Source: Alphaproteobacteria bacterium (GTDB taxonomy: Bacteria; Pseudomonadota; Alphaproteobacteria; CAAGCB01; CAG-977). From it: DNA of 64,000 nucleotides. The DNA is taken from positions 247,706 through 311,705 of the forward strand of contig JAFZYY010000030.1 in NCBI GenBank assembly GCA_017616015.1, given 5' to 3'. The notes under the pieces were generated by a model. It ran no database searches, was not told the DNA's origin, and saw only the letters and a program-made list of their open reading frames with translations. The position numbers and the translations under genes were made by a program. This document shows, piece after piece, positions 3,242 through 47,885 of the stretch (position 1 is the first letter of the stretch; the number at the start of each line of letters is the position of its first letter).

Positions 3242-3242
3242 A

Positions 3243-7991: not shown

Positions 7992-8004
7992 GAAGGGGGG
8001 ATAA

Positions 8005-10860: not shown

Positions 10861-10888
10861 ATATACGTAAGTATATACTTGCGTATAT
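10861..10888. promoter_or_regulatory. 28-bp near-perfect palindrome directly upstream of dndB; candidate operator
   Basis: atatacgtaagtatatacttgcgtatat pairs at 13 of 14 positions. A TTGACA hexamer lies at 10841-10846 and GGAG at 10888-10891. Confidence 0.45.
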
Positions 10889-10899
10889 CGGAGTCCGCG

Positions 10900-11976: not shown

Positions 11977-11985
11977 GGAGATACA

Positions 11986-19821: not shown

Positions 19822-20412
19822 ATGAAACGAGGTAAAGCCAAATTATTGACCGAAACCGACATCAAAAACTGTCTGCGGTACATCGACGATATGGAAAACG
19901 GTGAACGCAATCGCGCAATGTTTGAAATGATGTTAAACACGGCTCTGCGAATACATTCAATTCAAAAATTGACAATCGCTCAGGTCTATGACGACGACTT
20001 CAAACCGCGAGATAGTTTTCTTTTGCAGCCTGAACAGAATAAGGGACATAAGAAGTCGTTACAGGTTTACATCAACGCGACCTTGAAAAAAGAATTGATC
20101 CGATACGCAAAATATCTGATAAACGTTCTCCCTCCGAACCCGACCGATTACTTGTTCCGGTCGAATAAAGGAGGGTATCTGTCAAAACAACAAATCATCT
20201 ACACATTCCGACAGATATTCGACGGAGTGGGATTGGATAAACAATATCGGTGTCATAGCTTGCGCGCGACCACTCTGACCAAGTTGATGGACGCGGGATA
20301 CCCGTTACCCCTGATTAAAGAAATCTCCGGTCATTCGTCTATTTCAACCCTATCGATTTATTACCGTTCCAACCCGAGGAATATCATAGAAGCATTAAAG
20401 GTTATCGGGTGA
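19822..20412 (+). CDS. short tyrosine recombinase, catalytic domain only
   Basis: 196 aa. Box I TALRIHSIQKL, HSLRAT (HxxR), GHSSISTLSIYY (H...Y). No N-terminal core-binding domain. Confidence 0.65.
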   Translation: MKRGKAKLLTETDIKNCLRYIDDMENGERNRAMFEMMLNTALRIHSIQKLTIAQVYDDDFKPRDSFLLQPEQNKGHKKSLQVYINATLKKELIRYAKYLINVLPPNPTDYLFRSNKGGYLSKQQIIYTFRQIFDGVGLDKQYRCHSLRATTLTKLMDAGYPLPLIKEISGHSSISTLSIYYRSNPRNIIEALKVIG

Positions 20413-28847: not shown

Positions 28848-30572
28848 TTATTCCCGATACAGGTGACTTAAATCCAACCCATCATACTTCAACTTGGTAT
28901 TCACCGTTTCGCGCAGGACTTTAAGACTGACTTCCCCATAATGTTCGGACAGGCTTGATCCACCCTCCCATCCTTGAATACGCGTTACAAACTCCGGATT
29001 GGCTTCATTATTCCGGAACTCGGTACGCACTGTATGACGGAAACTGTGGAAGACATGACCTTCTTCAAACTTATCCGCCTTGGCTTTGATCCCTTTGTTC
29101 ACGCTGTCCAAAAACCGACCGAACCACTTGGAAATGTCATCGGAATAATGTCCCCGCGCATTGACGCGCAGTTCGGGAAACAGCCTCTTTTCCTTGCGCT
29201 TTTCTTTCACATAGTCCAGAAAACCGATTTTTATCAACTCATCATGCAGAGGAACAAGGCGAATCCCCGCCTTTGTTTTGACGTGCTTTTCTCCTTCATC
29301 GTTAATGCTGATTACCCAAACACCGTCAATTTGTCGGACATCTTTCGGGGTCAGTTGACACAATTCGTTGCACCTCGCACCTGTGAAAATTCCCAGCAAC
29401 GGAACCCAAAAACGCGCGTGTCTAGGGTGTGCGTCACCTTTGATCGCATATCCCCGTTTGTCGTCCCGACACCCTGTATAAATCGGAGCGTTGAAGATAT
29501 AGTTCAGTTGCCTTGCCGAAAAAGGCAAACGTTTTATTTCGTCTTCTTCATTGGCGGCACACGGAACATCGACCGTATCATACGGATTCTCGGTCAGATA
29601 TTTATACTTAACCGCCCAACCGAAAAAGCGTTTGATGACAACGAAATAATCCCCCAATGTCTTTGATCCGATGCATTCCGTCGGGTGTTTCTTTCCCCAT
29701 TCTATGTCTTTCAATACGTTGTATGTATCAGGTTTGCTCCGCGCGCTGTTCTTTGTGATGAACGGTAACAGTTCGACGGCGCGTTGCAGGTCTTCCGTCG
29801 TTACGGAACGTACCGTTTTATCTTTGCCCAAGATTTCTTGCAAAATATGGATTTTCTTGCTGACGCGGTTTTTGGAATCGGCGGATTTGTTCTTACGGGA
29901 ATTCTGGTTGTTATACACCTCCACCAAAGCGTCCAGTGTCATATCAGGTTTTAACGGCGTTCTTACCAACATCGGAGAGGAAACATTCTCCGCAGTCAGT
30001 CCCGAAGGGACTCCCACCGTCAGACGTTGAGGAGGAACATCCGTCACTCCGAGAGCGCAATGATGCATAAAATCGCAAAACTGCATTTCAGCGCGCATAA
30101 ATGCTTCTTCTAAGACTCGTTTGGAAGATTCCGTAGGGAACGGGTAATTGTTCCGCAGTAAAAAGGACAGACACTTCCGTTCAATAATCCCATAATCCGC
30201 CACGGCATACTTCGAATGCATCTGCGCAAACCGTTCCATATACGGTTCCGGTAACAACGGTTTTCCCGCGCAGCTTTCCCGTTCCTCCGCAATTCGGGAC
30301 AGCAAATACTCGTACGCGAACGTTTCCGCCTGACTGCGGTCATAATCCAGAGTGTGTTCGTCCTTGTCGTATCCCATTCTTTTTGCCATTTTTCCTTTGA
30401 AGTTCAACCGTTCGTACAAGTCTGACATTACCACGATATAGCGTCGTTGCGCAATTTGCTTATTCTTGGTTCTGAGGGACACCCACAGCTGTCTTTTACC
30501 GACCAGACTGCGGAAAGCGGTCGGTACATTCAGTACCGCATAATACGATGATCCGCGATTATAAAGACTCAT
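28848..30572 (-). CDS. tyrosine-type site-specific integrase (long form, 574 aa)
   Basis: Box I GARCNELCQL, HSFRHTVRTEF (HxxR), SSLSEHYGEV (Y). Its start faces the att repeat at 30686. Confidence 0.85.
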   Translation of the reverse strand: MSLYNRGSSYYAVLNVPTAFRSLVGKRQLWVSLRTKNKQIAQRRYIVVMSDLYERLNFKGKMAKRMGYDKDEHTLDYDRSQAETFAYEYLLSRIAEERESCAGKPLLPEPYMERFAQMHSKYAVADYGIIERKCLSFLLRNNYPFPTESSKRVLEEAFMRAEMQFCDFMHHCALGVTDVPPQRLTVGVPSGLTAENVSSPMLVRTPLKPDMTLDALVEVYNNQNSRKNKSADSKNRVSKKIHILQEILGKDKTVRSVTTEDLQRAVELLPFITKNSARSKPDTYNVLKDIEWGKKHPTECIGSKTLGDYFVVIKRFFGWAVKYKYLTENPYDTVDVPCAANEEDEIKRLPFSARQLNYIFNAPIYTGCRDDKRGYAIKGDAHPRHARFWVPLLGIFTGARCNELCQLTPKDVRQIDGVWVISINDEGEKHVKTKAGIRLVPLHDELIKIGFLDYVKEKRKEKRLFPELRVNARGHYSDDISKWFGRFLDSVNKGIKAKADKFEEGHVFHSFRHTVRTEFRNNEANPEFVTRIQGWEGGSSLSEHYGEVSLKVLRETVNTKLKYDGLDLSHLYRE

Positions 30573-30620: not shown

Positions 30621-30685
30621 TGCTAATAGATTCCACAATACAAAAAAGCCAAGTTCGTTTGTTTTCAACGACTTGGCTTGTTGAG

Positions 30686-30729
30686 TGGCTGGGGAACCTG
30701 GACTCGAACCAAGACTAACGGAGTCAGAG
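30686..30729. repeat. 44-bp direct repeat identical to the 3' part of tRNA-Gln (att site)
   Basis: tggctggggaacctggactcgaaccaagactaacggagtcagag is identical to 44050-44093. Flanking bases differ on both sides. Confidence 0.85.
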
Positions 30730-30856
30730 GGCATAATCTCTTGGTTGCACGATGATTGACCTGAATGGTTTGTTATTCGTTTTCTTATTTGAAATCAATA
30801 ACTTACTTCAAAGCTCCGTTCATTTTTCTTAATCTTCTTTTATGGCGATTTGTTTT

Positions 30857-30880
30857 GTCGGTTGACCGCGGGTTGACCGG
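30857..30880. promoter_or_regulatory. GGTTGACCG x2 direct repeats upstream of the P4-type integrase (candidate arm-type sites)
   Basis: gtcggttgaccgcgggttgaccgg. The same motif pair recurs at 43951-43976 at the other island end. Confidence 0.5.
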
Positions 30881-30893
30881 AAGGAGAAGAAAA

Positions 30894-32063
30894 ATGAAAG
30901 TGTTGTTTACTGAAAAATTCATCAGGGAACTGCGTCCGGAAGCCGGAAAAGAGCGTTTGGAAATAGCGGACGAAAGGTGCCCGTATCTGTATTGTCGGGT
31001 TTCGCCCCTCGGGGGAAAAACGTATGCCGTTATAAAAAAGGTTCAAGGAAAGACTGTTCGTGTCACTTTGGGAAAGACGAATGAAATCAGTTTGGATTTT
31101 GCGCGAAGACAGGCGTTCGACTGTTTGCAGAAAATCCGGCAGGGAATCAATCCGAATGAGGAAAAGCGCGCTTTGTCTTCTGAAATGACTTTGGGCGAAC
31201 TTTTTCAGGAATATGTTGAACGGTATGCCAAAGAGCAAACGTCATTAAAAACGCTTCGGGACAACATCAGTCTTTTCAAGCGGCGTTTTTCCCATTGGTC
31301 GGGGAAACGGATTTCGGAATTGCAAACGAAGCACATTGAAACGCTGATAATAAACTTGCGCGACAAGGACGGCATTTCCGCTTCCAACAAGGCTTTGACG
31401 CTGTTGCGTCATATGTATAACAAAGCCATTCAATGGGGATGGAACGGACGCAATCCGACAACCGGAATCGCCAAATATAAACTGGCTTCCAGAGAACGGT
31501 TCGTTTTGCCGGAGGAATTTAAAAAGCTTTTCGACGCCATTGACGGCGATCCCGATCCGGTTCACCGCACGTTCTTTTATGCTTTGCTCTATACGGGGCA
31601 AAGGTGCGGCAATGTTCTGGAAATGAGGTGGGAACATATCAATTTCACGAATGCGATTTGGTATATTCCCAGAACGAAAAACGGAACGTCGATGAGCGTT
31701 CCTCTGGTAAAACAACTCGTTTTTCTGTTGAAAAACCTGAAACGGGAAAGCGTGAAAAGCGATTGGGTGTTTCCGATGGGAGATGACGCAACCCGACATA
31801 TGGGCTATCCGCAAAAGGCGTGGAAGAGGTTGAAACAAACAGCGGGTATTGACAATTTACGGATGCACGATTTGCGCCGGACGGTTGCGAGTTATGAGTG
31901 TATGAACGGCGAAAATCTGTCCGTCGTTTCCAGAACGTTGAACCATAAAACGCTTCAGGCGACGCAAGTTTATGCGCGGGTGGACACGTCGGCGGTCGGT
32001 CGCGCATTGCAAAAAACGGTCAATCTGTTCGAACAAATCGCGAGTCAAAAAGAGGCTTTTTAA
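30894..32063 (+). CDS. int: P4-type tyrosine integrase
   Basis: ATG at 30894 preceded by AAGGAGAAG. N-terminal arm-binding-like region, then RCGNVLEMRWEHI (R), HDLRRT (HxxR), LNHKTLQATQVYARV (H...Y). The track ORF is extended upstream to a non-ATG start at 30765. Confidence 0.85.
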   Translation: MKVLFTEKFIRELRPEAGKERLEIADERCPYLYCRVSPLGGKTYAVIKKVQGKTVRVTLGKTNEISLDFARRQAFDCLQKIRQGINPNEEKRALSSEMTLGELFQEYVERYAKEQTSLKTLRDNISLFKRRFSHWSGKRISELQTKHIETLIINLRDKDGISASNKALTLLRHMYNKAIQWGWNGRNPTTGIAKYKLASRERFVLPEEFKKLFDAIDGDPDPVHRTFFYALLYTGQRCGNVLEMRWEHINFTNAIWYIPRTKNGTSMSVPLVKQLVFLLKNLKRESVKSDWVFPMGDDATRHMGYPQKAWKRLKQTAGIDNLRMHDLRRTVASYECMNGENLSVVSRTLNHKTLQATQVYARVDTSAVGRALQKTVNLFEQIASQKEAF

Positions 32064-32266
32064 GGCTCGATTCAAAGGGGATTTTTCTTTTGTGTCGTCG
32101 GACGAAAAGGCTATCCTGCAAAAAAATCCCCTCTGAAAAACTCTTGATAATTCAATACCCCGTTTTTTTTTGCAGGATAGCCTTTTAGTGCCACAAAAAC
32201 GGCAAAAAAATTTCTTGTTTGAGAATGTCGGCGTTATCTTTTATAAATAGGAAAAGAGGTGTTTTT

Positions 32267-33571
32267 ATGGTTGAAAACGAACGCACGGAATACAAAGAAA
32301 AACTGACCGCCGCTTTGGAAAAGGAAGCGGTGGCGTTCCTGAACGCGCACGGCGGAACGATCTATATCGGCATTGACAAGAACGGAAATACCGTCGGCGT
32401 CGAGAAGTGCGACAAGCTTCAACTGGAAATCAAAGACCGTCTGATAACGGGGATTCGTCCGTCCGTTATGGGCTTGTTCGACATCGCTTGCGAAAGTCTG
32501 GACGGGCGTGATGTAATCCGGATCACGCTTGCCGCGGGCAAAGAACAACCCTACTATATTCGCGCCAACGGTATGAGCGAACGGGGCTGTTTTATCCGCA
32601 TCGGCAGCTCCGCCCAACCGATGACGCAAGAGCAGATCGACTCAATTTACTACCGCAGAACGCATACGTCGTTGAGGAATATGCCGTCGCCGAATCAGCA
32701 CTTGGATTTCACGCAACTGCATATTTACTATGCGGGCAGAAAGCTGACTTTGAACGATTCTTTCGCGGACAATCTGCAACTGAAAACCGACGACGGGCGA
32801 TATAATATGACAGCGTATTTGTGCGCGGACGAAAACGGAATGCCGATTTTATTCGCCAAGTATGCCGGAACGGATCGGGACGTTTTAACGGAAAACAAGA
32901 ACTTCGGATATTGCTCTTTAATCAAAGCGACCGAACAAGTCTTGGACAAGTTTTCCGTTGAAAACAGGATTTACGCGCGCGTAACGGCGACCAAACGCGA
33001 AGAACGCCCGATGGTCGATCCGCAGGCGTTGAGGGAAGCGGTCATCAACGCGATTTTGCATAACGATTATTCATACAGCAACCCGCCGAAGTTCGAAATG
33101 TTTTCGGACAGGATAGAGATCACGTCAACGGGCGGCTTGCCGTGGGGTATGACAAAAGAAGACTTTTTCAACGGCAAATCGTGTCCGCGCAATCCCGAAT
33201 TGATGAGAATCTTTCAGGATATGGAACTGGTCGAGCGTCTGGGTTCGGGCGTGCGGCGTATTTTGAACGCTTATGCGCCGGACGTGTTCGAGATTTCGGA
33301 CACTTTCTTCCGGGTGACATTCCGGTATAAGCAGGCGTTTGATGAACCCGCCTCGAAAACTGCCCAAAAAACTAGGGAAAAAACTAGGGAAAAAACTAGG
33401 GAAAAAATCTTATCTCTGATTCAGGAAAACCCGTCTGTAACAGCGGTTGAACTGGCGGAAAAACTTGGATTGACAGCGAAAGGGATAGAATGGCAGCTGA
33501 AAAAGATGAAAGACGAGGGCGTCATTGAACGTGTCGGTTCGCTCAAAGGCGGCAAGTGGGTGGTAAAGTAA
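32267..33571 (+). CDS. AlbA_2 (Schlafen-like) + HATPase_c_4 + winged-HTH protein, often annotated as putative transcriptional regulator
   Basis: AVAFLNAHGGTIYIGID (AlbA_2); AVINAILHNDYSYSNPPKFEMFSDRIEITSTGG (HATPase_c_4); C-terminal wHTH. Likely start MVENERTEYKE. Confidence 0.7.
   Translation: MVENERTEYKEKLTAALEKEAVAFLNAHGGTIYIGIDKNGNTVGVEKCDKLQLEIKDRLITGIRPSVMGLFDIACESLDGRDVIRITLAAGKEQPYYIRANGMSERGCFIRIGSSAQPMTQEQIDSIYYRRTHTSLRNMPSPNQHLDFTQLHIYYAGRKLTLNDSFADNLQLKTDDGRYNMTAYLCADENGMPILFAKYAGTDRDVLTENKNFGYCSLIKATEQVLDKFSVENRIYARVTATKREERPMVDPQALREAVINAILHNDYSYSNPPKFEMFSDRIEITSTGGLPWGMTKEDFFNGKSCPRNPELMRIFQDMELVERLGSGVRRILNAYAPDVFEISDTFFRVTFRYKQAFDEPASKTAQKTREKTREKTREKILSLIQENPSVTAVELAEKLGLTAKGIEWQLKKMKDEGVIERVGSLKGGKWVVK
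33366..33401. repeat. 3 perfect copies of a 12-bp tandem repeat encoding (KTRE)n inside the 32267-33571 gene
   Basis: aaaaaactaggg x3, translating to KTREKTREKTRE in the linker before the wHTH. Confidence 0.9.
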
Positions 33572-33588
33572 AAAGTTTCTTTGTTCTT

Positions 33589-33915
33589 CTATAAAGCTTT
33601 TAAGACACGGACGGCGCGGGAAAGGCTTTCGCCGTTCATTGTGGCGATCAGAGTTGCCGCTTCATTTTTTAAGGCGGATTGTTCCGTGCGCAGATGAGCG
33701 TCAGTATCCATCAAATCGCCGTAGGTGCAACCTAAAACGGCAACGATTTTTTCCAAAACTTCCAACGAAACGCCGACACCGCATTCGATATTACTGATTG
33801 TTCTTGTGCCAACATCGCACAACTCCGCCAAGCGTTCCTGCGACATTTTGGGACGCTTTGCTTTTCTGAACGCTTTAACGCGATTTCCAATCGTTTTTTT
33901 TAGGTTTTCACTCAT
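33589..33915 (-). CDS. XRE-family HTH transcriptional regulator
   Basis: MSQERLAELCDVGTRTISNIECG helix-turn-helix. 108 aa. Confidence 0.75.
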   Translation of the reverse strand: MSENLKKTIGNRVKAFRKAKRPKMSQERLAELCDVGTRTISNIECGVGVSLEVLEKIVAVLGCTYGDLMDTDAHLRTEQSALKNEAATLIATMNGESLSRAVRVLKAL

Positions 33916-34029
33916 ATACGCAGTCTAATTTCTATAAAACATAAATTTAATGTAGATTTTCTGTTTGTTTAGAGTCAAAATCCGCAAAAAGTTGCGTATT
34001 TTTACCGATAAACAGGAAGTTTCGTTTCT

Positions 34030-34674
34030 ATGTCCGAATCAAAGCAAGTCATCAGCGCGGAGCGTGTCGCGGAATACGGCGAGGTTTTGACCGCCGAGCG
34101 CGAAGTCGAAGCGATGTTGGATCTGGTTTCGGCGGAGGCGGCGCGAATCGACAGTCGTTTTTTAGAACCCGCGTGCGGAAACGGGAATTTTCTGACCGCT
34201 ATTTTGCGGCGCAAGTTGGAAACGGTCGCACGGCTTTACAAAGTAAAGCCGTCTGAATATCAGGAACAATCGTTGTTTGCGTTGGCTTGTGTTTATGGAA
34301 TCGACATTCTGCCCGACAACGCGCAGGCGGCGCGCGACCGTTTGACGGAACAAATGCGCGACAAATACAAAACGCTGTATAAAACCGAACCGGCGGAAGC
34401 CTATTTGAAAGCGGCGCGTTATATTTTAAGCAAAAACATCGTTTGCGGCGACGCGTTGAACGGCGTTGAAAAAATCAGCTTTATTCAATGGTCGTTGATT
34501 GACGGGAATTTCAAGCGGGAAGAATACAAGTTCGGGCATTTAACGGCGTCCTGTGCGGATTTGCCGTTGTTCGGATTTGCGGATGGCGATCCCGAAAAGC
34601 CCGTTTATCAAGCAAAATCCGTCAAAACATATCCATTAATATCTGTTTTAAAAATAGGGGAATGCGATGATTGA
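34030..34674 (+). CDS. methyltransferase-like protein (SAM motif I present, no clear catalytic (D/N)PP(Y/F))
   Basis: FLEPACGNGNFL (motif I-like), preceded by LTAEREVEAML (motif X-like). No NPPY; a CGDALNG stretch sits in its place. Overlaps the next gene by 8 nt. Confidence 0.5.
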   Translation: MSESKQVISAERVAEYGEVLTAEREVEAMLDLVSAEAARIDSRFLEPACGNGNFLTAILRRKLETVARLYKVKPSEYQEQSLFALACVYGIDILPDNAQAARDRLTEQMRDKYKTLYKTEPAEAYLKAARYILSKNIVCGDALNGVEKISFIQWSLIDGNFKREEYKFGHLTASCADLPLFGFADGDPEKPVYQAKSVKTYPLISVLKIGECDD

Positions 34675-36157
34675 ACAACACGCGCCCGATATTTTGTCCT
34701 GTATCGCCAACCTGTCCAGCGATGAAGTCTTCACGCCGCCGAAAGTCGCAAACGACGTTCTTGACCTGTTGCCGCAGGAATTGTTTTCCGATTCGAAAAC
34801 AAAATTCCTTGACCCGTGTTGCAAAAGCGGCGTTTTCTTGCGTGAAATCGCTAAGCGTTTGTTGGTCGGATTGGAAAAGGAAATACCCGATTTACAAAAA
34901 CGGATAGACCATATTTTCCACAATCAGCTGTTCGGATTGGCGTTGACGGAATTGACGGGATTGATGAGCCGGCGTTCCGTTTATTGTTCCAAAGACGCAA
35001 GCGGGAAATACAGCGTTTCGTTGTTCAAAAACGGACAGGGACATATCCGTTACAAACGGTGCGAACACGATTTTTATAACGGAAAATGCCGTCAATGCGG
35101 CGCGTCGCAAAGTCAATACGACCGCGGCGAAGCGTTGGAAACGCACGCCTATTCTTTCATTCACACAGACAAGGTTTTTAACGATATGCAGTTTGATGTC
35201 ATTATCGGCAATCCGCCGTATCAGTTAAATGATGGTGGAAATGCCGCAAGTGCGAGTCCAATTTATCATTTGTTTGTTGAACAAGCTAAACGCTTAAATC
35301 CCCGTTATTTAACGATGATCATTCCGTCCCGTTGGTTTGCAGGTGGCAAAGGTTTAGATGATTTCAGAGATGAAATGTTGCACGATGAACGGATCAGAGT
35401 GATTTGTGATTTTCCGACGCCTTCAGATTGTTTCCCAGGTATAAGATTAGAAGGCGGCGTTTGTTATTTCCTGTGGAATAGGGATAATAAAGGATTATGT
35501 GAAGTATCAACATTTAAAGACGGGATAAAAATATCGTCTTTAGCTCGTCCTTTGCTAGAGAAAGGTTGCTCTACTTTTGTCAGATATAATGAAAGCATTT
35601 CTATTTTAAGAAAAATCCAAAATTTCAATGAAATAACGATGGATAAAATGGTTTCTTCAAGAAAACCCTTTGGACTTCCCACCAATTTCCCGAATATTTT
35701 TAAAGAACCCAAAAAAGGATATATAAAAATATATGGATATTTGAAGGAAGGATATGTTAATCCTGCTCATATAAAACAAAACAGAGAATGGGTAGATAAG
35801 ATAAAAGTTTATATTTCAAAGGCGTATGGCGAAGTTAATACAAAGAATTCTCTTTTTGTTTTAGGAAAACCATTTATTGGAGAAAAAGGAACTTGCTGCT
35901 TAGAAACGTATCTGGTTGCAGGACTGTTCGATAAAATATCCTCTGCGGAAAATTTATGTTCTTACATTAAAACGAAATTTTTCAGATTTTTGGTTTCTCT
36001 TAAAAAAAATACACAAGATGCTACAGCAAAGGTCTATTCCTTTGTTCCGGTGCAGGATTTTTCAAAGCCGTGGACGGACGAGGAACTGTATGAAAAATAC
36101 GGGTTGAGCGAGGAGGAAATCGCTTTCATCGACTCTATGATTCGTCCGATGGAGTAA
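34667..36157 (+). CDS. Eco57I/gamma-class N6-adenine DNA methyltransferase
   Basis: Motif X FTPPKVANDVLDLL, motif I DPCCKSGVFL, motif IV IIGNPPYQ. Has a CxxC...CxxC insertion (YKRCEHDFYNGKCRQCG). About 250 aa follow NPPY, presumably the target-recognition domain. Confidence 0.8.
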   Translation: MIEQHAPDILSCIANLSSDEVFTPPKVANDVLDLLPQELFSDSKTKFLDPCCKSGVFLREIAKRLLVGLEKEIPDLQKRIDHIFHNQLFGLALTELTGLMSRRSVYCSKDASGKYSVSLFKNGQGHIRYKRCEHDFYNGKCRQCGASQSQYDRGEALETHAYSFIHTDKVFNDMQFDVIIGNPPYQLNDGGNAASASPIYHLFVEQAKRLNPRYLTMIIPSRWFAGGKGLDDFRDEMLHDERIRVICDFPTPSDCFPGIRLEGGVCYFLWNRDNKGLCEVSTFKDGIKISSLARPLLEKGCSTFVRYNESISILRKIQNFNEITMDKMVSSRKPFGLPTNFPNIFKEPKKGYIKIYGYLKEGYVNPAHIKQNREWVDKIKVYISKAYGEVNTKNSLFVLGKPFIGEKGTCCLETYLVAGLFDKISSAENLCSYIKTKFFRFLVSLKKNTQDATAKVYSFVPVQDFSKPWTDEELYEKYGLSEEEIAFIDSMIRPME

Positions 36158-36161
36158 ATCT

Positions 36162-38627
36162 ATGACCGAATTACTCGATTTTCCCGCCCGTCCGAAAATT
36201 TACGCTTACACTTTACCGGAATACAAAGACAAAAACTGGCTGAAAATCGGCTATACGACACGCGATGTCCGCGAACGCGTCAATGAACAGCACGGTGTGT
36301 TAAAACCGATTGAAACTGCCGCCGAAATCGTTTTTGAAACGGACGCCGTGCGTGATGACGGCACTTTGTTTCTTGATCACGATTTTCATCGCTATATCAA
36401 ACAAAACTGTATCAAACATTTGCGCGGCGAATGGTATGAAATCACTCTGCCCGAATTGAAAGCGGCGATGACCGCTTTTAAAAAACGTCGTCCAAACGTC
36501 GATCTGAAACGAACGGAAACTTTTTCTATGCGTCCCGAACAGCGCGACGCCGTTGATATGACCGCCGCTTATTTCAAGGTTTTTTCCGTTGAAAAGACGG
36601 GTAAAACGCCTCATTTCCTTTGGAACGCGAAAATGCGTTTCGGCAAAACGTTTGCCGCCTATCAACTTGCCAAAAAAATGGGGTGGAAAAAAATCCTTGT
36701 CCTGACGTTTAAGCCTGCTGTTCAAAGCGCGTGGGAATCCGACCTGAAAACACACACAGATTTTTCGGAGTGGCAGTTTGTCGTCAATGACGGGGAAGGT
36801 TATCAAAGAATCAATAAATCAAAGCCTTTTGTTTGGTTCGCGTCGTTTCAGGATTTGCTCGGCAAAAACGAGTTGGGCGGTATTAAAACCAAAAATGAAA
36901 TCGTCCACGCGATCAACTGGGATTGTATCATTCTTGACGAATACCATTTCGGCGCATGGCGCGACAGAGCCAAAGACCTCTACGATGCGGAAGAAAAAGA
37001 GGAAAATCCGCAAATAGACGATTATGACGAAGAATTGATGCCTTTGACGACAAACGCCTATCTGTATTTATCGGGAACGCCTTTTCGCGCCCTGAACAAC
37101 GGCGAGTTTCTGGAAGATCAGATTTTCAACTGGACTTATACGGATGAACAACGCGCCAAACGGGAATGGAACGAGGAAACGGAAAATCCGTATCTTGAAT
37201 TGCCTCAAATGGTGATGATGACTTACCGCCTGCCGCGTGAAATCCGTGAAATCGCTTTGCAGGGCGAGTTTGACGAATTCGATCTGAACGAATTTTTCAA
37301 AACTGAAAATAAAGACGGAGAGCCTGTCTTTAAACACGAAAACGAAGTGAAAAACTGGCTTGATTTGATACACGGTCAATACCTGCCGACCGAAATCGAC
37401 AGCCTGAAAACAGGCAAGCGTCCGCCGATGCCTTTTTCCGATGTCCGTCTGACCGCTTGTTTGCGTCATACATTGTGGTTTCTGCCGAATGTCGGCGCGT
37501 GCAAAGCGATGGAAAAGCTTTTAAAAAATCATTCTTTTTACGGTAAATATAAAGTCGTCTGCTGTGCCGGACAAGAAGCGGGCATCGGCGTTGACGCTTT
37601 ACCGCCCGTTACGGACGCAATCGGGAATAATCCGCTGAACACGTTATCCATTACGCTCTCTTGCGGCAAACTGATGACGGGTGTTTCCGTCAAGGCGTGG
37701 GGCGGTATTTTGATGTTGCGTAATACGTCCAGTCCCGAAACATATTTTCAGGCGGCGTTCCGCGTGCAAACGCCGTTCAAGCTTGTCAATCCGACCGGTG
37801 TTTATCCGAACGAAACGCAAATCGTCAAACCCGTTTGCTATGTCTTTGATTTCGCGCCCGACCGCGCGTTAAAACAAATCGCCGAATACAGCGGGCGGCT
37901 TGATTTGAACAGTCCCGACAGTCCGGAACAAAAAGTTTCGGAATTCGTCAAATTTCTGCCCGTCCTGTGCTATGACGGCGAAACGATGAACCTCTTGGAC
38001 GCGGGACAGTTGCTTGATATGGTCGTGTCGGGGACGGCTTCGACGATGCTTGCCCGTCGTTGGGAAAGCGCGCTGTTAGTCAATGTCGATAACGAAACGT
38101 TGAAGAAACTTCTGAACAATCCCAAAGCGATGGAAGCTTTGGAACGCATTGAGGGATTCCGCGGACTGAACAAAGAACTGTCCACAATCGTCAACCGCTC
38201 CGAAGCCTTGAAAAAAACTAAAAAAGAGGCGAGCGGTGGCGAAAGCGCGGCGGAAAAACGCGAACTGACTAAAGAAGAAAAAGAAATCAAATCCAAACGG
38301 AAAATCATTCAGGAAAAATTGCTGAAATTCGCGACCAGAATCCCCGTGTTTATGTATCTGACGGACGCGCGGGAACAAACTTTGAAAGACGTGATAACGC
38401 AACTTGAACCGGCTTTGTTCCGCAAAGTTACGGGCTTGACGATCCCTGATTTTGAATTGCTTGTCAGTATCGGGATTTTCAATGCGCAAGTGATGAACTC
38501 CGCGATTTTGGCGTTTAAACGATATGAAGAAGCGTCCTTAATCTATACGGGTTTGAACAGACACGAAAACGAACTGATCGGCGGGTGGGATACAACCTTT
38601 ACTGTCGAAGAAATGAGGCAGATGTAA
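36162..38627 (+). CDS. GIY-YIG nuclease domain fused to SF2 helicase (putative restriction subunit)
   Basis: N-terminus KIYAYTLPEYKDKNWLKIGYTTRDVRERVNEQ (GIY-YIG pattern). Helicase motifs MRFGKT, ILDEYHF, LSGTPF. 821 aa, starts 5 nt after the methyltransferase stop. Confidence 0.7.
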   Translation: MTELLDFPARPKIYAYTLPEYKDKNWLKIGYTTRDVRERVNEQHGVLKPIETAAEIVFETDAVRDDGTLFLDHDFHRYIKQNCIKHLRGEWYEITLPELKAAMTAFKKRRPNVDLKRTETFSMRPEQRDAVDMTAAYFKVFSVEKTGKTPHFLWNAKMRFGKTFAAYQLAKKMGWKKILVLTFKPAVQSAWESDLKTHTDFSEWQFVVNDGEGYQRINKSKPFVWFASFQDLLGKNELGGIKTKNEIVHAINWDCIILDEYHFGAWRDRAKDLYDAEEKEENPQIDDYDEELMPLTTNAYLYLSGTPFRALNNGEFLEDQIFNWTYTDEQRAKREWNEETENPYLELPQMVMMTYRLPREIREIALQGEFDEFDLNEFFKTENKDGEPVFKHENEVKNWLDLIHGQYLPTEIDSLKTGKRPPMPFSDVRLTACLRHTLWFLPNVGACKAMEKLLKNHSFYGKYKVVCCAGQEAGIGVDALPPVTDAIGNNPLNTLSITLSCGKLMTGVSVKAWGGILMLRNTSSPETYFQAAFRVQTPFKLVNPTGVYPNETQIVKPVCYVFDFAPDRALKQIAEYSGRLDLNSPDSPEQKVSEFVKFLPVLCYDGETMNLLDAGQLLDMVVSGTASTMLARRWESALLVNVDNETLKKLLNNPKAMEALERIEGFRGLNKELSTIVNRSEALKKTKKEASGGESAAEKRELTKEEKEIKSKRKIIQEKLLKFATRIPVFMYLTDAREQTLKDVITQLEPALFRKVTGLTIPDFELLVSIGIFNAQVMNSAILAFKRYEEASLIYTGLNRHENELIGGWDTTFTVEEMRQM

Positions 38628-38800
38628 AACATCTATTATATGGAAAAATTATACCCGTTTTTATTAGCGGTTCACAAAAGGATAAAATCAGACAATTATC
38701 GTTGCTATTCGATATTAATATCGTTGACGTTTTCAATCTGATATAGAACTCGTATAAAAAAGAACTGGAGAAGGGCAACATTAAGGTAGATTTTAAACAC

Positions 38801-39613
38801 TTATGTGTTCGACGTATTCAAAATTTTAGAGATACCATTATGTTTTTCTAACCAATCATAATAGCCGTCTATTTCAGGATATGTAAGATTTATTACAAAT
38901 TCAATTCCCCTTATGACAAGAATAAAATATACGGTAGCACATATGGCATTACCTATTTTCCCTTCTTTTATAATGAGAAAATCGCATTCAAATTTTTTCT
39001 GAATAGCACATCCTGATGAATCAATATCATATTCATACATACCGTAGATTCTTCGAATACTACATGGCCAATCATAAGGCGTTCCTAGTCTCGCATAATT
39101 ACGTATTAAGTCATATTGTACATCGTCAATAATTTCATTTAAACTATTCTCGATGTCTTTTAGACAATAAGCCCAATATTCAAGGGCGATTTTTGCAAGT
39201 AATCGAGATGTGTAAATATTACTTTCAAACTTTGTATTATCTGTAAAAACTGGAATATATAGATGTCCGCCTTTTGTGTTTTTTATAGCATTAAAAACAC
39301 TATCATTCATTATATGAAAAGTTAAGGTTAAAGGGGAATCTTCTATACAAATTTGTGTTTTTTTATCATTAAAGGTACATTCAACAGCAGGCATTCTACC
39401 TATTTTATTTGGAATTTTTTCATACAAACGCCATAATTTAACAACGTCTAAGTCCATAAATTTTTTTTCGACTTTACGTGCAAAATAGTTATTACATTTA
39501 TCACAGACATATCCACGGGGAAGTATTAAAGTCGTGTTGCCCAGTGATTCTGGTATTATATGTTCTATACTTTTTGTGCTTGAAGAATCTTGCTTACAAA
39601 ACAAACAACGCAT
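38801..39613 (-). CDS. HNH endonuclease family protein
   Basis: N-terminal CLFCKQ...HIIPESLGN...CDKCN (Cys4/His HNH core). 270 aa, AT-rich. Confidence 0.7.
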   Translation of the reverse strand: MRCLFCKQDSSSTKSIEHIIPESLGNTTLILPRGYVCDKCNNYFARKVEKKFMDLDVVKLWRLYEKIPNKIGRMPAVECTFNDKKTQICIEDSPLTLTFHIMNDSVFNAIKNTKGGHLYIPVFTDNTKFESNIYTSRLLAKIALEYWAYCLKDIENSLNEIIDDVQYDLIRNYARLGTPYDWPCSIRRIYGMYEYDIDSSGCAIQKKFECDFLIIKEGKIGNAICATVYFILVIRGIEFVINLTYPEIDGYYDWLEKHNGISKILNTSNT

Positions 39614-39873
39614 TTTATTCCTTTACTCAGAGTCAAACTTTAGTCGTTGAGTAAATATTATAAAAAAAGTCAAGTCTTTTTGTGACAAGAAAAAAATGTA
39701 CCCTGAGTGTTATTAATGAGAAAAACTTTCGTGGTAATTCTCTGAAGAGTGTCGAAAAAATTTTGTTCTATAATCATCAGTCGATGGATAATTCAGAAGT
39801 GAAGCAAAAAAATGAACAAATCAGTTTGCGGAACACAAAAATCAAAGTTGAAGAAGGGCGATAAATGTGAAAA

Positions 39874-40245
39874 TTAATCTATATATATAAAAGATTGAGG
39901 GGGTTTTGCTATTCCATAATCCGCAAGAGTTTTTTCTTTTTTAAAGCGTGTCACCTTTCCCAATTGATAAGCATAAGCACATTCTTTTTGAGAAAAATAC
40001 TCCATAAATTTTTTTCTGCTAATGCCGGCTCTCGGAGATGTTTGATTCCATAAATCGCTGGGCGTAGATTTTAAGATATCTGTAACTTCAACTTCGCCAA
40101 CAACCTTCATTTTTGGGGCCGAGGTATAAATTAGAATTTTGTTGACCGAGCGAGAGGCGCATTTGCGGCGAAATTCAAATTTCTTTTCACCGGATAAAAT
40201 CCGTTCTGAATATTCCGGTTTGATAGATAGCAAAATCGTACACAT
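39874..40245 (-). CDS. ASCH domain protein
   Basis: 123 aa. ILLSIKPEYSERILSGEKKFEFRR matches the ASCH/PUA-like N-terminal beta-barrel pattern. Confidence 0.65.
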   Translation of the reverse strand: MCTILLSIKPEYSERILSGEKKFEFRRKCASRSVNKILIYTSAPKMKVVGEVEVTDILKSTPSDLWNQTSPRAGISRKKFMEYFSQKECAYAYQLGKVTRFKKEKTLADYGIAKPPQSFIYID

Positions 40246-40256
40246 GAGAACCTCTC

Positions 40257-41777
40257 TTAAACATACTTTATGGAAGTTTGAGCCAGTTGTAAAATTTTTT
40301 CATATTGTGCATCGGTAATTCGAGTAAACGATTGAGGACCACTTGGAAAAGAAAGAATTTTTTCATCCCATAGTTCTTTTAAAATAGGTCTTTTTACCAA
40401 AGGCGAAACCTGTATAAATTTTACGGCTATTAAATTGCCATTAAAATGATTCCATATGGCACGTAATTCTTTTTCTGGAAAGACACTTCTGTTTTGGCAG
40501 TATTTTATTAAATCGATTTCAGAATGCAAATCCGTTTTTATCTCATCAACGATACAAAGAGTCGATAAAACAGATTTATGGGCTTTTTTTTCATACGGCT
40601 CTGCCATTCTGTAAAAAAATACTAAATCCCCCGGATGAGCCCCATTCGTTTCTGTGGACCACGGTATATAAACTTTTTGTAAAGCATATTTACAAGCATC
40701 TTTTCCCAAAAAATTTATTTGGTTTTCTGTTTTTAACTGAGAATCGGGGAGAAGATGAGTGTGCCAACATGCTTTAATTGGCATAATGAATTTATTAACA
40801 TTATGAAGTATATTTGGGAAATTCTTTTTAGGAGAAAGAGTTGAATCATATGTGTTTAATTTTTTTACAAAAACCGCCTCTTCCTTACCCGTAGAAGTGT
40901 TTTTTCCATATCTAAAAAATCCCCATCTTTCGAATAATTCTTGGAGAGCTCCAAGTTCGGGGCGGTCTTCAAACAGGGTAACATAAATTTCATCTACCTT
41001 GCGTTTTAAAGCATTATCAAAGATGATTTTTATAAATCTTTCTCCTAGACGAAAGCCAGTAGATTCGACTTTAAATGTTCCTACTTTTAATCGACGTTTG
41101 GGTAAGAAGGTCGGTTGCATATATGGATAAGGTTCCGTTTCTTCTTCTGTTTTTAAATATAAAAAACCTAAAATATTATTTTGATCGTCATTACAAATAT
41201 ATGCTTCTTCATCGCATTTTTTTGCGAACCAATCTTCAAAACCGGGATAATCTTTTTTAAATGTATTAAAGAAATTATCCTTTACATTTAGATCCCCAAA
41301 AAGAGTTTTTCGGACAGACAACGCTTTATATTCAATTAACTGGGGATAACGTTCTGAAGCAGATTTAATGAAGTGATCTATGGAATAGACTCTATCTCCT
41401 AAACCTATTTCTGCCGCTTTTTTTTGTAATCCCTTATCTTCAGTTATTAAAATATTGGCGTGATTTAAAAATAAAGAATTTAACAAAATAGTATCGTTAA
41501 AATCATTCTCAGTTTTATCAATGCTTTTAAATTTTTCATAGATTGTCTTATCGATACTCTCGTTAACCTTTAAAACATTATAAGAGGACAATTTTATTTT
41601 AAAGGCTTCTCTAACGGTAGGGCTATTATATTTTTCTATTTCCTTTATAGAAACAGGATGGACAATCTTCTCAAAATGCAAGCGATCTAGCCAACGGAAA
41701 AGATGTCCAATGCTGTAATTCATTGGAAAAATACTTTCACGATAGATCAGTATGTTTGTATCAAGAAGAACCCTCAT
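40257..41777 (-). CDS. PIN domain + GNAT acetyltransferase-like + PUA-like (EVE/ASCH-type) fusion protein
   Basis: 506 aa. MRVLLDTNILIY and ILITEDKG (PIN). TGFRLGERFIKIIFDNALKRKVDEIYVTLFE then LQELFERWGFFRYG (GNAT motifs A/B). C-terminal GDLVFFYRM...KSVLSTLCIVDEI (EVE-like). Confidence 0.6.
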   Translation of the reverse strand: MRVLLDTNILIYRESIFPMNYSIGHLFRWLDRLHFEKIVHPVSIKEIEKYNSPTVREAFKIKLSSYNVLKVNESIDKTIYEKFKSIDKTENDFNDTILLNSLFLNHANILITEDKGLQKKAAEIGLGDRVYSIDHFIKSASERYPQLIEYKALSVRKTLFGDLNVKDNFFNTFKKDYPGFEDWFAKKCDEEAYICNDDQNNILGFLYLKTEEETEPYPYMQPTFLPKRRLKVGTFKVESTGFRLGERFIKIIFDNALKRKVDEIYVTLFEDRPELGALQELFERWGFFRYGKNTSTGKEEAVFVKKLNTYDSTLSPKKNFPNILHNVNKFIMPIKACWHTHLLPDSQLKTENQINFLGKDACKYALQKVYIPWSTETNGAHPGDLVFFYRMAEPYEKKAHKSVLSTLCIVDEIKTDLHSEIDLIKYCQNRSVFPEKELRAIWNHFNGNLIAVKFIQVSPLVKRPILKELWDEKILSFPSGPQSFTRITDAQYEKILQLAQTSIKYV

Positions 41778-41780
41778 GTG

Positions 41781-42809
41781 TTACACTCTTTTCCTTTTGT
41801 TGAAGATATTAACGAGCCCTTTTATTAAAAATATCCCTATTAATATAACGATTAGAAACAATAGTATTTTATATTCAATAGGAATCTTTCCAAACGCAAA
41901 AGGTTTGTTTTCAAAAATCTTTCTGATATTGCTGATTGCTATTAACGAACTGCATAAAATATTTACAAATATTGCAATTATTATCTGTTTTGCTCCAATT
42001 TTTTCTTCGGAAAAAATTGAAAAAAACGAATAACTCGGCTTGCCTTCATCTTTATAAAAAGTTGTTATATACGAATCATTATTTATGCCTTCTATGTTTG
42101 GAAGGTACTTTTTAAAAAAGTTTGTTTCAAGATTACGTATATTAGACAGTTTTTTATCATCAACAAAAATAACTTCATATGTATTTGGAATGACATGTAG
42201 CATTAATGCCTTTTGAATATCACTGCACTCGAGGTTCTTTTTATCTATCGTTTCAATGATTTTTTGTGGCATATTCCTTTTTTCATTAATTTTAAAATCG
42301 AATATAAAGATGTTTTTTGAAATACTTCCTTTGAAAAGAGCAAAAGTTTTTTCATACGTTTGGATAAGAAATCTTATGTAAGGATGAGCATCATTAGCTG
42401 ATTTATTTGTAAAGGTTATATTCAAAACTCCATCTTTTTCTACATGGCATAATACGTTTAAAGCCGCAATTTTTCGGTCGCTGTTTTTAAAAGAGATTAT
42501 TGATCCGTTGTGTTTATTTCCATTGATTGGAGATATAGATTCTACAACTTCATTAAAAATGAATTGAGCATTATCAGAATCGCTAAACTTTTCGTGAAGA
42601 CTTTCTATTTTGCATTTTTCACTTATCCAAGGAGCAAAAAAGAACATATTATAATTCTCATCAATTTTTAAAGAATCCTTACAAAATTCTACTCCTATTT
42701 CGATGCAAGTTTTTTTATCGCGGATATCCCATGAGCATATTTGCATACGTTCAATTCTTTTCGTTTCTATATTGTTTTTTTCGTGCAAAAGAAATAATGA
42801 GTTATCCAT
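41781..42809 (-). CDS. membrane protein with two C-terminal TM helices and an ~270-aa N-terminal soluble domain
   Basis: Hydrophobic helices IIIAIFVNILCSSLIAISNI and ILLFLIVILIGIFLIKGLVNIF at the C-terminus. 4-nt gap to the next gene. Confidence 0.55.
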   Translation of the reverse strand: MDNSLFLLHEKNNIETKRIERMQICSWDIRDKKTCIEIGVEFCKDSLKIDENYNMFFFAPWISEKCKIESLHEKFSDSDNAQFIFNEVVESISPINGNKHNGSIISFKNSDRKIAALNVLCHVEKDGVLNITFTNKSANDAHPYIRFLIQTYEKTFALFKGSISKNIFIFDFKINEKRNMPQKIIETIDKKNLECSDIQKALMLHVIPNTYEVIFVDDKKLSNIRNLETNFFKKYLPNIEGINNDSYITTFYKDEGKPSYSFFSIFSEEKIGAKQIIIAIFVNILCSSLIAISNIRKIFENKPFAFGKIPIEYKILLFLIVILIGIFLIKGLVNIFNKRKRV

Positions 42810-43341
42810 TTAACACTCCTGCTAGAAATTCGATAACCTCTTTCTCATCATATCCATTATACTGCATATGATGAATATATAAAGGAGTTCCGGTGTGGTT
42901 TGAAAAGATTTCGGCTTGATGATGTTCCGCTGTCATAAGAGTTGTTATCTCGAGTAAAGAATAATCTTTTTTATCTCTATGCAACAAGTTTTGTTGAAGT
43001 CTTACGGGATCTGCTTCTAATAACAATATTTTTTCAAAATGCATTTTTGCTAAATCATCTAACGATAATAAGTCCGGAATATTTCCTTTTTTTAAAATAC
43101 AGAAATGACCGTCTAAGAAAAATAGAGGATATGTTTTTAATTTTTTTTCAATCTGCTCAATTAGAAGGGCTTGGTTGTTTTTTTTATTCGTCACATATTT
43201 ATTGCGACCATATGTTTCATCATTGACTTCAGATATTAACATACCGGCAGAAAAATGCGGGATTTTCGTTTTTTCAAAGATACTTTCCAAAAGTGTACTT
43301 TTCCCGACACCATAACAGCCCGCGACAAAAATTACTCCCAT
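42802..43341 (-). CDS. P-loop NTPase, nucleotide-kinase-like
   Basis: Walker A AGCYGVGKST and Walker B-like LFFLDGHF. 179 aa. Overlaps the next gene by 8 nt. Confidence 0.65.
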   Translation of the reverse strand: MGVIFVAGCYGVGKSTLLESIFEKTKIPHFSAGMLISEVNDETYGRNKYVTNKKNNQALLIEQIEKKLKTYPLFFLDGHFCILKKGNIPDLLSLDDLAKMHFEKILLLEADPVRLQQNLLHRDKKDYSLLEITTLMTAEHHQAEIFSNHTGTPLYIHHMQYNGYDEKEVIEFLAGVLNG

Positions 43342-43436
43342 TAATCTCTCCTTTTAAAGATATAGCTTTTTTATCACAATTATGTGAACATTTCAAGAAC
43401 ATTTATAGGCTAATTGCATTGATAAAACAGGGCGGA

Positions 43437-43661
43437 TTACTCCGCCCTGTCTGTTGATACGTTTTTGTTGATCCACTCGTCCAAATCGGTTTTTCGGTAT
43501 CGGATGACTTTCCCCAATTTGACAAACGGCAAGCCGTATTTGTTCGTCATACGCCAGACGGCAAGCGTGTTGATCTTGACGCCGATGTAAACAGCGGCGT
43601 CTCGCGGTGTCATCAATCCGGCGGGGGATATGTTGCAGGCTTCTTTACAGGTTCGTTCCAT
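43437..43661 (-). CDS. xis: AlpA-family excisionase/HTH regulator
   Basis: MTPRDAAVYIGVKINTLAVWRMTNKYGLPFVKLGKVIRYRKTDLDEWI matches the AlpA/Xis pattern. The track ORF is longer (to 43727); start chosen at MERT. Confidence 0.6.
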   Translation of the reverse strand: MERTCKEACNISPAGLMTPRDAAVYIGVKINTLAVWRMTNKYGLPFVKLGKVIRYRKTDLDEWINKNVSTDRAE

Positions 43662-43950
43662 ATGTTCCTCCTTTCTTTGACGAAGGCTTGAACACACAGA
43701 AACACCAGCGCACACGTCCTTCATCAAATAAATGATGTTGATTTCGTTTGAATTGTGTGCAGGCTCGGTAAATACCGGTCTGTGCTAAAAAGCTGTTATC
43801 AATCTAAGCATATCAACGCCTTGTTTGCAATATCCCCCGTGTATGATTGTGATTGATTATCGTTACCGGACGGAAAAAAGAAAATACGGATTGCGTTTTT
43901 TACGCTTTTGACTGATGATGAATGAGGAAGATTGATGACATTTGAACGGT

Positions 43951-43976
43951 GTCGGGGTTGACCGTCGGTTGACCGG
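43951..43976. promoter_or_regulatory. GGTTGACCG x2 direct repeats near the tRNA-proximal island end (candidate arm-type sites)
   Basis: gtcggggttgaccgtcggttgaccgg, 74 bp inside the att repeat, in the xis upstream region. Matches 30857-30880. Confidence 0.5.
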
Positions 43977-44049
43977 AGTTCCTTTGACAAGGGTGTTGAA
44001 AGCTTGTCCGGGAATCAAAAAAGCCGTTGAAAATCAACGGCTTATCTGT

Positions 44050-44123
44050 TGGCTGGGGAACCTGGACTCGAACCAAGACTAACGGAGTCAGAGTCCGCTG
44101 TTCTACCTTTAAACTATTCCCCA
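44050..44123 (-). tRNA. tRNA-Gln (anticodon CUG)
   Basis: 74 nt including CCA. Acceptor stem tggggaa/ttcccca, T-loop TTCGAGT, anticodon loop cuCUGac. Its 3' 44 nt (44050-44093) are duplicated at 30686-30729. Confidence 0.9.
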
Positions 44124-47793: not shown

Positions 47794-47885
47794 GGAGAGA
47801 TGTCCGAGAGGCCGAAGGAGCTTGATTGGAAATCAAGTATAGGTGTCAAAGCCTATCAAGGGTTCGAATCCCTTTCTCTCCGCCA
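47794..47885 (+). tRNA. tRNA-Ser (anticodon GGA)
   Basis: 92 nt with CCA. Acceptor ggagaga/tctctcc, long variable arm, anticodon loop uuGGAaa. Confidence 0.9.

Follow-up and report, generated by a model that had tools for sequence, protein, structure and literature searches.

Genomic islands in tRNA genes have been catalogued by Islander, which recognizes them from an intact tRNA gene, a displaced 3' fragment of that gene in direct orientation and an internal tyrosine integrase, and which counts 125 arrays of at least two islands among 3,919 islands (Hudson, Lau & Williams 2015, PMC4383910). Islander also distinguishes anticodon-centred (A) from T-stem/junction (J) attachment classes (PMC4383910), and both tandem arrays and A/J site classes are documented for tRNA islands (PMC4383910; bioRxiv 10.1101/2020.11.02.365908). 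Here we analyse a stretch of 64,000 nucleotides from an Alphaproteobacteria bacterium (assembly GCA_017616015.1, contig JAFZYY010000030.1, positions 247,706 to 311,705 of the forward strand), referred to below as the window; all coordinates are positions in it unless another contig is named. It contains a 13.4-kb interval between two direct copies of the 3' end of a tRNA-Gln gene, which we name island R, and the left neighbour of this interval, island L. As in the Islander arrays, R and L each have their own tRNA fragment and integrase, R being of class A and L of class J. There is no difference in kind from the known arrays; this one belongs to an uncultured alphaproteobacterium of the gut, a relative of 'Acetobacter sp. 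CAG:977', and its third repeat lies outside the window. We put the probability that R is a discrete site-specific integrative island in tRNA-Gln(CUG), and the tRNA-proximal member of a tandem array, at roughly 0.88.

Other elements invite comparison as well. In P4 the block of identity comprises about 20 bp at the T-loop and 3' end of the tRNA gene, and anti-phage cargo occurs on P4-like enterobacterial elements. R shares with P4-like and CP4-57-type islands the Arm-DNA-bind_3 and tyrosine recombinase domains and the insertion at a tRNA 3' end. An earlier note on this DNA, made from the letters alone, had called the integrase P4-type, which is right for its domain architecture only. The family assignment does not stand: the integrase scores 25.7 bits on the NCBIfam P4-like integrase-domain model PRK09692, which has a cut-off of 434, and its site is of the anticodon-loop class, with an identity block that, unlike that of P4, extends over 44 nt from the anticodon loop, as it does in relatives at other tRNAs. 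R also lacks primase, capsid-redirection and other P4 genes by Pfam. In modules of the KplE1/CPS-53 type, the integrase and the directionality factor are encoded at opposite ends of the integrated element. R is arranged similarly, with the integrase gene by one junction and the excisionase gene by the other, both flanking attP in the circle, and with binding-site-like repeats between the int promoter region and the ribosome-binding site (RBS); R is not a prophage.

The ends of R and its recombination genes are as follows.

44050-44123, minus strand: intact tRNA-Gln(CUG) gene, anticodon CTG (ARAGORN; Rfam, 63.6 bits)
44050-44093: tRNA-side copy of the repeat, the 3' 44 nt of the tRNA gene; attL core of R
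30686-30729: displaced tRNA-Gln fragment (nt 31-74), exact repeat; attR core of R
30730-30893, plus strand: integrase-side att arm, with a tandem pair upstream of int
30860-30879: tandem pair GGTTGACCG-cg-GGTTGACCG, 14-34 nt upstream of the int ATG
30894-32063, plus strand: int_R, tyrosine integrase of 389 aa (Pfam Arm-DNA-bind_3 and catalytic domain; PHROG 1)
32097-32194: inverted repeat with 30-nt arms, between int and the next gene
43437-43661, minus strand: xis, excisionase-family protein of 74 aa, HTH_17/TIGR01764 (Pfam, NCBIfam, PHROG 66)
43662-44049: excisionase-side att arm
43956-43975: tandem pair GGTTGACCG-tc-GGTTGACCG, 74 nt outside the tRNA 3' end
44021-44043: island-borne terminator hairpin for the tRNA, with the 43956-43975 pair just beyond it

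The two repeat copies, 30686-30729 and 44050-44093, are identical at 44 of 44 positions on the same strand, and R consists of 30730-44049 plus one copy; the starts of the two copies are 13,364 bp apart. On the tRNA strand the repeat comprises nt 31-74: it opens with the first base of the anticodon loop and closes with the encoded CCA. The earlier note had read it as nt 31-74 including CCA, and the ARAGORN and Rfam tRNA calls confirm this. The match breaks off sharply at both edges (G at 30730 versus T at 44094, and G at 30685 versus T at 44049). When the 25-nt and 30-nt halves of the repeat were searched with up to 3 mismatches allowed, no sites besides these two were found in the window, and 100 dinucleotide-preserving shuffles yielded 0 matches to the halves. 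The 44-bp repeat is exact and is not due to chance. An Rfam search returned two tRNAs and nothing else. The tRNA-Gln sequence is the same as that of the tRNA at an empty site described below (contig L007), island R supplying a perfect tRNA-Gln 3' half with its terminator and the displaced half marking the far end of R.

As in the islands of Islander, the intact gene and the displaced fragment of the same gene lie in direct orientation on one replicon, and the interval between them encodes a tyrosine integrase (PF00589 and PF13356) that is neither Xer nor integron, int_R scoring far under the cut-offs of the NCBIfam models for both. The interval is missing with exact ends in L007, and L025 and L026 place the left end of R against the native flank. 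If the repeat were a partial copy of the tRNA gene made locally and without site-specific recombination, its bare existence would be explained, and nothing more. Such a duplication would have to produce by accident a repeat that runs exactly from anticodon loop to CCA and is flanked by an integrase and an excisionase, in an interval that is missing precisely in L007 and whose relatives show a like layout at other tRNAs. The presence/absence polymorphism with its exact ends refutes this duplication, and we give it next to no credence.

The sequence to the left of 30686, which had been taken for chromosome in the earlier note, is not the edge of the chromosome. Island L starts directly beyond the left repeat of R and has an integrase of its own.

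28848-30572, minus strand: int_L, DUF6538 and Phage_integrase protein of 574 aa (Pfam), reading away from the repeat
30643-30682, minus strand: hairpin and T-run of L, directly after the tRNA-derived repeat

The hairpin serves as the replacement tRNA terminator of L; a plain terminator scan missed it because its loop is 16 nt long. The window is about 99.9-100% identical to contig k141_1912915 of ENA ERZ27256937, from which we took a further 9 kb to the left of the window (L014). There, a 17-nt copy of the tRNA 3' end (TGGCTGGGGAACCTGGA) in the correct orientation at L014 8097-8113, equivalent to window -916 to -900, adjoins a ferritin gene and ordinary chromosomal genes. L is 31.6 kb in length with its left end at window -899, and no third tRNA-derived repeat of at least 13 nt was found in window 1-30685. 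The tRNA-side repeat of L is formed by the outer 17 nt of the displaced fragment (30686-30702), that is, the displaced 44-nt fragment of R contains the 17-nt target of L. The members of the array are R, with the 44-bp fragment starting in the anticodon loop and int_R, and L, with a 17-bp fragment made of the last nucleotides of the tRNA and int_L. The earlier note had looked for the empty site, and staked the island, on related genomes in which tRNA-Gln is directly followed by the flank left of 30686; because this flank is island L, both its empty-site test and its refutation criterion were aimed at the wrong junction.

Comparison with other contigs reveals different states of the tRNA-Gln site. 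The site is empty in a 1.1-kb contig from another conspecific strain (L007), which is 98.5% identical to the window over marC and the tRNA, and in which marC and tRNA-Gln are followed directly by the ferritin-side flank, with 224 nt 99.6% identical to L014 8113-7890. Therefore, about 45 kb is missing with exact ends. Two conspecific contigs found via the representative of the 90% cluster of int_R (L025, from NCBI metagenome-assembled genome (MAG) GCA_017617275.1, and L026) match 8,113 nt of the native flank at 99.35% identity. Island L is missing from both, and the flank leads straight on to the remainder of the 44-nt fragment, the int arm and int_R (98%). L025 departs from the window at 32208, just beyond the 32097-32194 inverted repeat, and continues with a DUF4143 ATPase, a YgjP-like gene and a type I HsdR of a restriction-modification (R-M) system, and L026 keeps the AlbA_2 gene described below (98.9%) and diverges at 33570. 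On the marC-side contig of the same MAG as L025 (L003), xis lies beside the tRNA and the divergence is at 43424. R alone is also present in another species (L023), with a native-type hairpin, the fragment and int_R (97%).

L-type DNA alone occurs in L027, in a chromosomal context different from that of the window, where an integrase 93% identical to int_L and the same hairpin directly follow an intact tRNA-Gln(UUG). Besides the window, one independent sample (L013) and a second species (L017, 'Acetobacter sp. CAG:977', and L022) have R and L in tandem. The R-only, L-only and tandem states therefore indicate that R and L are independent elements stacked at one tRNA. That a discrete integrative island occupies the 3' end of tRNA-Gln is borne out by the empty site, by the R-only contigs L025 and L026 and by the whole island in L022.

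The adjacency of R and L could also mean that they form one 45-kb composite, which moves only as a unit via its outer repeats and in which the copy at 30686 is an internal scar. Such a composite would be in line with the only empty site found, which lacks R and L together, and with the occurrence of R and L-type DNA side by side in the same order in the second species (L017, L022). It would not, however, explain why two conspecific contigs and L023 have R-type DNA alone on the native flank, why L-type DNA stands alone after tRNA-Gln(UUG), why int_R is 96% identical between the two species whereas int_L is only 56-59% identical, or why the identity blocks differ (44 bp for R and 17 bp for L). 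We consider the composite very improbable.

At the same site, another strain (L008 919-1100) has a different sequence after tRNA-Gln, with its own hairpin and two copies of TTTTCTTACTATT, so there is a third kind of occupant. In L023, an open reading frame (ORF) for a 563-aa large serine recombinase (8134-9825) is part of a neighbouring prophage that also has a CI-like repressor, RecT, Dam and Lar; the ORF crosses the native-type flank and terminates within the displaced tRNA fragment. The 38-nt hairpin of L (30641-30685 compared with L022 and L017) is 100% identical, although the int_L proteins are 56-59% identical, and the 7 nt between hairpin and repeat are completely different between the window and L022/L017; the hairpin may be a conserved part of the L-type attP.

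The reading of R as an integrative island is also consistent with its recombination genes. The domains of int_R are unambiguous (PF13356, E=4e-12; PF00589, E=4e-27), and the catalytic residues R-K-H-R-H-Y are all present in an alignment to XerA (4a8e). Translation starts at 30894, which has an RBS (GGAG) and an ATG, and not at the long-ORF start at 30765; the exact 389-aa product is a called gene in public assemblies. The inverted repeat at 32097-32194 is probably a bidirectional terminator. At the other end, xis is the last gene before the tRNA, 388 bp from tRNA-Gln, and matches PF12728 HTH_17 (E=7e-10) and TIGR01764 (30.1 bits versus a cut-off of 28.8). An AlpA-type xis had been proposed here; the excisionase family and the place by the tRNA were right, and the AlpA assignment was not, with no match to PF05930 Phage_AlpA at E<=0.01 and HTH_17 as the sole Pfam match. 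The 74-aa protein is 93% identical in L003, L004, L006 and L022, and is presumed to be the recombination directionality factor of R.

Each arm of R carries a tandem pair of 9-mers, GGTTGACCG-nn-GGTTGACCG, with a period of 11 nt, or one helical turn, and four of the five plus-strand GGTTGACC octamers in the 64 kb are at these GGTTGACCG pair sites. Elements whose integrases are 54-72% identical to int_R have another pair, GYGYCCC-n4-GYGYCCC, in the same place upstream of int, and in L032 also on the far arm. A third lineage (L032/L033) has GTTGCAA-n4-GTTGCAA at both arm positions, in the order pair, hairpin, tRNA 3' end. Because the position is kept while the motif changes with the integrase lineage, the GGTTGACCG pairs behave as expected of arm-type integrase sites, and they are most likely candidate arm-type sites for the N-terminal domain of the integrase. 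The pair proximal to int may in addition act as an operator in auto-regulation of int. Every element brings its own terminator directly past the CCA.

Taken together, these features indicate how R most probably arose. Int_R recombined a circular R, whose attP carried tRNA nt 31-74, with tRNA-Gln(CUG), and strand exchange would have taken place in or next to the anticodon loop, as in the Islander A class. R thereby replaced the 3' half of the tRNA gene and its terminator, and the original 3' half was pushed 13.4 kb away. In the excised circle, int and the HTH_17 excisionase gene would face each other across attP; the GGTTGACCG pairs may bind the N-terminal domain of the integrase, and the HTH_17 protein may direct excision. 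Between the ends lies exchangeable cargo: an AlbA_2 protein, a block of controller, methylase and T5orf172-helicase genes, an HNH gene, and an operon with an AAA_17 gene and the genes of the candidate defence system PDC-M11.

The second species provides evidence on the history of the module. L022 contains the whole R island at the matching tRNA, without the HNH gene and the 342-aa gene of the operon. Host genes are 75.8% (marC) and 81.3% (lepA region) identical between the window and L022, compared with 92.5% for int, 95.1% for xis, 95.1% for the non-coding int-side arm, 95.9% for the non-coding xis-side arm and 44/44 nt for the displaced fragment. The cargo genes form a mosaic at 72-92%. The recombination module is far better conserved than housekeeping genes, which points to transfer after divergence of the hosts, and the mosaic cargo indicates that cassettes are exchanged while the backbone stays stable. 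The recombination module has spread horizontally between species.

Could R be an old insertion that has lost excision and become fixed, a domesticated defence locus with persisting repeats? The identical R|L junction in two independent samples and the absence of transfer genes from R would be compatible with such a relic, and so would the lack of a detected attP junction: scans for the int-side junction in metagenome contigs, and for the xis-side junction and the arm-pair motif in viral contigs, returned integrated copies and no excised circle or attP, so present-day activity of R has to be inferred. Other points likewise weigh against an active, discrete island carrying defence genes. All comparison sequences are metagenome contigs or MAGs, several of which break inside the repeat, and we found no genome with tRNA-Gln(CUG) directly followed by L alone, the arrangement to which the earlier note had tied its proposal, the closest being L027 at tRNA-Gln(UUG). 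The putative function of the arm sites is argued entirely from position and co-variation, and the defensive role of the cargo is predicted from matches to profile hidden Markov models and from context, with PDC-M11 a candidate only. By Pfam, the genes of R include no relaxase, replication or packaging gene.

A fixed relic, on the other hand, would hardly retain an intact integrase and excisionase, nor non-coding arms and a non-functional 44-bp fragment that are 95-100% conserved when housekeeping genes are 76-81% identical, and it would not be expected to show the same backbone with different cargo in strains whose flanking chromosome is 98.5-99.3% identical. We regard such fixation as unlikely and favour a discrete integrative island. 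R has neither the relaxase of integrative and conjugative or mobilizable elements (ICEs and IMEs) nor the type IV secretion system of ICEs among the Pfam domains of its genes, and neither Pfam nor PHROGs detects the capsid, terminase, primase or packaging-redirection genes of a prophage or phage satellite. R resembles IMEs in being a small int/xis element that lacks conjugation genes, and differs from them in having no relaxase and no recognizable oriT; mobilization of R is a possibility and not a finding.

Elements with integrases 54-72% identical to int_R all lie beside partial 3' halves of the tRNA genes for Leu(UAA), Leu(CAA) or Ser(CGA), which again begin within the anticodon loop. One such element (L032/L033; L032 9781-15749) is an island of 5.75 kb with a 59% identical integrase, an HTH_17 gene and a Mob_Pre relaxase, so the integrase family includes mobilizable elements. 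L032 is a tandem array at tRNA-Leu(UAA), in which this small member lies beside an island that has the R-M block and the PDC-M11 operon known from R. The adjacent order of xis, core and int in L032 was considered as an attP and rejected, as the arms carry different motif pairs and the site is the junction of two tandem islands.

The cargo of R, annotated with Pfam, PADLOC, NCBIfam and PHROGs, comprises the following genes.

32267-33571 (ORF from 32219), plus strand: SLFN_AlbA_2, HATPase_c_4 and HTH_24 (winged helix-turn-helix) protein (Pfam)
33589-33915, minus strand: XRE-family helix-turn-helix protein (Pfam HTH_3; PADLOC Control_protein, E=7e-12)
34030-34674, plus strand: 214-aa protein like the N-terminal part of type II/IIG methyltransferases (PADLOC MTase_II; PHROG methyltransferase)
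34667-36157, plus strand: Eco57I-family N6-adenine DNA methyltransferase, 496 aa (Pfam Eco57I, E=1e-36; PADLOC MTase_II, E=1e-64)
36162-38627, plus strand: T5orf172 (GIY-YIG-like) and ResIII helicase-like protein, 821 aa (Pfam, E about 1e-5 per domain)
38801-39613, minus strand: HNH_5 endonuclease-domain protein, 270 aa (Pfam)
39874-40245, minus strand: ASCH-domain protein, PDC-M11B (PADLOC, E=4e-46; Pfam ASCH)
40257-41777, minus strand: PDC-M11A, 506 aa (PADLOC, E=4e-180; weak N-terminal PIN_3, E=7e-4, below cut-off)
41781-42809, minus strand: 342-aa protein with no family match
42802-43341, minus strand: AAA_17 small P-loop kinase-like protein, 179 aa (Pfam), first gene of the operon

This inventory agrees with the cargo listed in the earlier note (AlbA_2, XRE, methyltransferase with GIY-YIG/helicase, HNH and a four-gene operon), which Pfam, PADLOC and NCBIfam confirm. 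The AlbA_2 gene is often, but not always, linked to the int_R integrase family. It is present at 82-99% identity in L017, L018, L020, L022 and L026, and is recognized from Pfam domains alone in L028-L031. The gene was rejected as a fixed part of the backbone, being missing after int in L021, L023 and L025, and also as a part of the R-M block, as L026 has it without the R-M block downstream and as variable inserts separate the two in L018, L022, L029 and L030. In the linker of the AlbA_2 protein, a 12-nt tandem repeat (33356-33403) encodes KTRE x3; the otherwise near-identical ENA contig has one KTRE unit fewer, and L022 has a KTTQ repeat at the matching place. The gap between the AlbA_2 and controller genes (33571-33589) is a variable cargo slot that is empty in the window. 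It holds an extra DUF2971/PDC-S31-like gene after AlbA_2 in L022 (3215-4153), three genes including a RES-domain toxin in L018 (12741-15632) and other genes in L029/L030 (about 2870-4720).

The XRE protein had been described as a repressor. The XRE helix-turn-helix is there; the protein looks rather like an R-M controller, with its match to Control_protein, and its gene always lies beside the methylase block, even where genes are inserted between XRE and AlbA_2. Its most likely role is that of controller (C) protein for the methylase/nuclease block next to it. The 214-aa gene overlaps the methylase gene by 8 nt and is intact at 80-84% identity in L017, L018 and L022. A single fused type IIG model, PDLC03626, is matched in separate parts by the methylase, over the C-terminal third, and by the 821-aa protein, over residues 150-677 (E=3e-32, PADLOC), and the 821-aa protein is presumed to be the restriction subunit. 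A methyltransferase and a nuclease/translocase partner in one operon, together with a controller, correspond to a predicted split type IIG/ISP-like R-M system. By tblastn the block stays together in L017, L018 and L022, and its gene order is matched in L029, L030 and L032 (called genes and Pfam). PDB sequence searches with the 821-aa helicase protein, the methylase and PDC-M11A found no relative.

The HNH_5 gene is accessory, being missing from the otherwise collinear island in L022, and the PADLOC search gave no match for its product. The four-gene operon that follows (39874-43341, minus strand) has a low GC content of about 30% and contains adjacent genes for both components of PDC-M11. The PDC systems are untested candidates predicted from their embedding within known defence systems (Payne et al., bioRxiv 10.1101/2024.01.29.577857). 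The operon in R differs from PDC-M11 in the AAA_17 gene in front and the additional 342-aa gene, whose product has no match in Pfam, PADLOC, NCBIfam or PHROGs. The AAA_17 gene is next to PDC-M11A also in L022 and L032, where it directly abuts PDC-M11A and the 342-aa gene is missing.

Island L contains a further set of genes, among them the following.

988-1542: GmrSD_N (GmrSD-like) gene
2096-3241: AAA_21 ATPase gene, two genes downstream of the GmrSD-like gene
5922-10844: Dnd-associated restriction-like trio
10879-16992: DndBCDE and a cysteine desulfurase
19822-20412: integrase fragment of 196 aa

L also encodes a DUF4143 ATPase, Fic, a DUF927 primase-like protein and HipBA in addition to int_L, and the integrase fragment suggests that L is itself composite.

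Two observations concern the right part of the window. The tRNA-Ser gene (GGA, 47794-47885), located 3.7 kb from the tRNA-Gln site, is unoccupied here. In MAG GCA_017617275.1 (L003 8-631), the similarity to the window stops exactly at the tRNA-Ser 3' end and is followed by a DUF6538-type integrase 34% identical to int_L; tRNA-Ser GGA is a second integration hotspot. Non-coding sequences at 63623-63680 and 63719-63809 are 86-91% identical to non-coding DNA in the R-type variants L021, L023 and L026, where the matching stretches sit just downstream of int or AlbA_2.

The data lead us to speculate, tentatively and with some doubt, that the int_R backbone represents an uncharacterized family of minimal "cassette shuttle" islands in gut Alphaproteobacteria, which swap cargo, retarget tRNAs and cross species. 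The parts of this backbone are an integrase of the anticodon-loop class, paired arm motifs specific to each integrase lineage, a tRNA terminator supplied by the island and an HTH_17 excisionase. If such a family exists, its defence cargo would be swapped at a few fixed breakpoints (32208, 33570 and 43424), and species would be crossed without transfer genes of its own, by hitch-hiking on relaxase-bearing relatives or on neighbouring elements. The conserved cargo would then comprise two candidate systems, the split T5orf172-helicase/methylase R-M system with its controller and the AAA_17 and PDC-M11 operon.

As a tRNA genomic island in a tandem array, R is of a standard kind, and the understanding of how tRNA islands work is unchanged by it. 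Within one uncultured gut species, a single tRNA-Gln site is found empty, with one island that has at least three cargo sets, and with a stack of two islands, each inserted at its own sub-site of the tRNA. The analysis delimits about 45 kb of predicted defence DNA exactly, and the paired 9-mers offer testable candidates for the arm sites of the integrase. Two candidate modules that recur on related islands, the PDC-M11 operon with its AAA_17 gene and the split T5orf172-helicase/methylase block, could reasonably be put to phage challenge.

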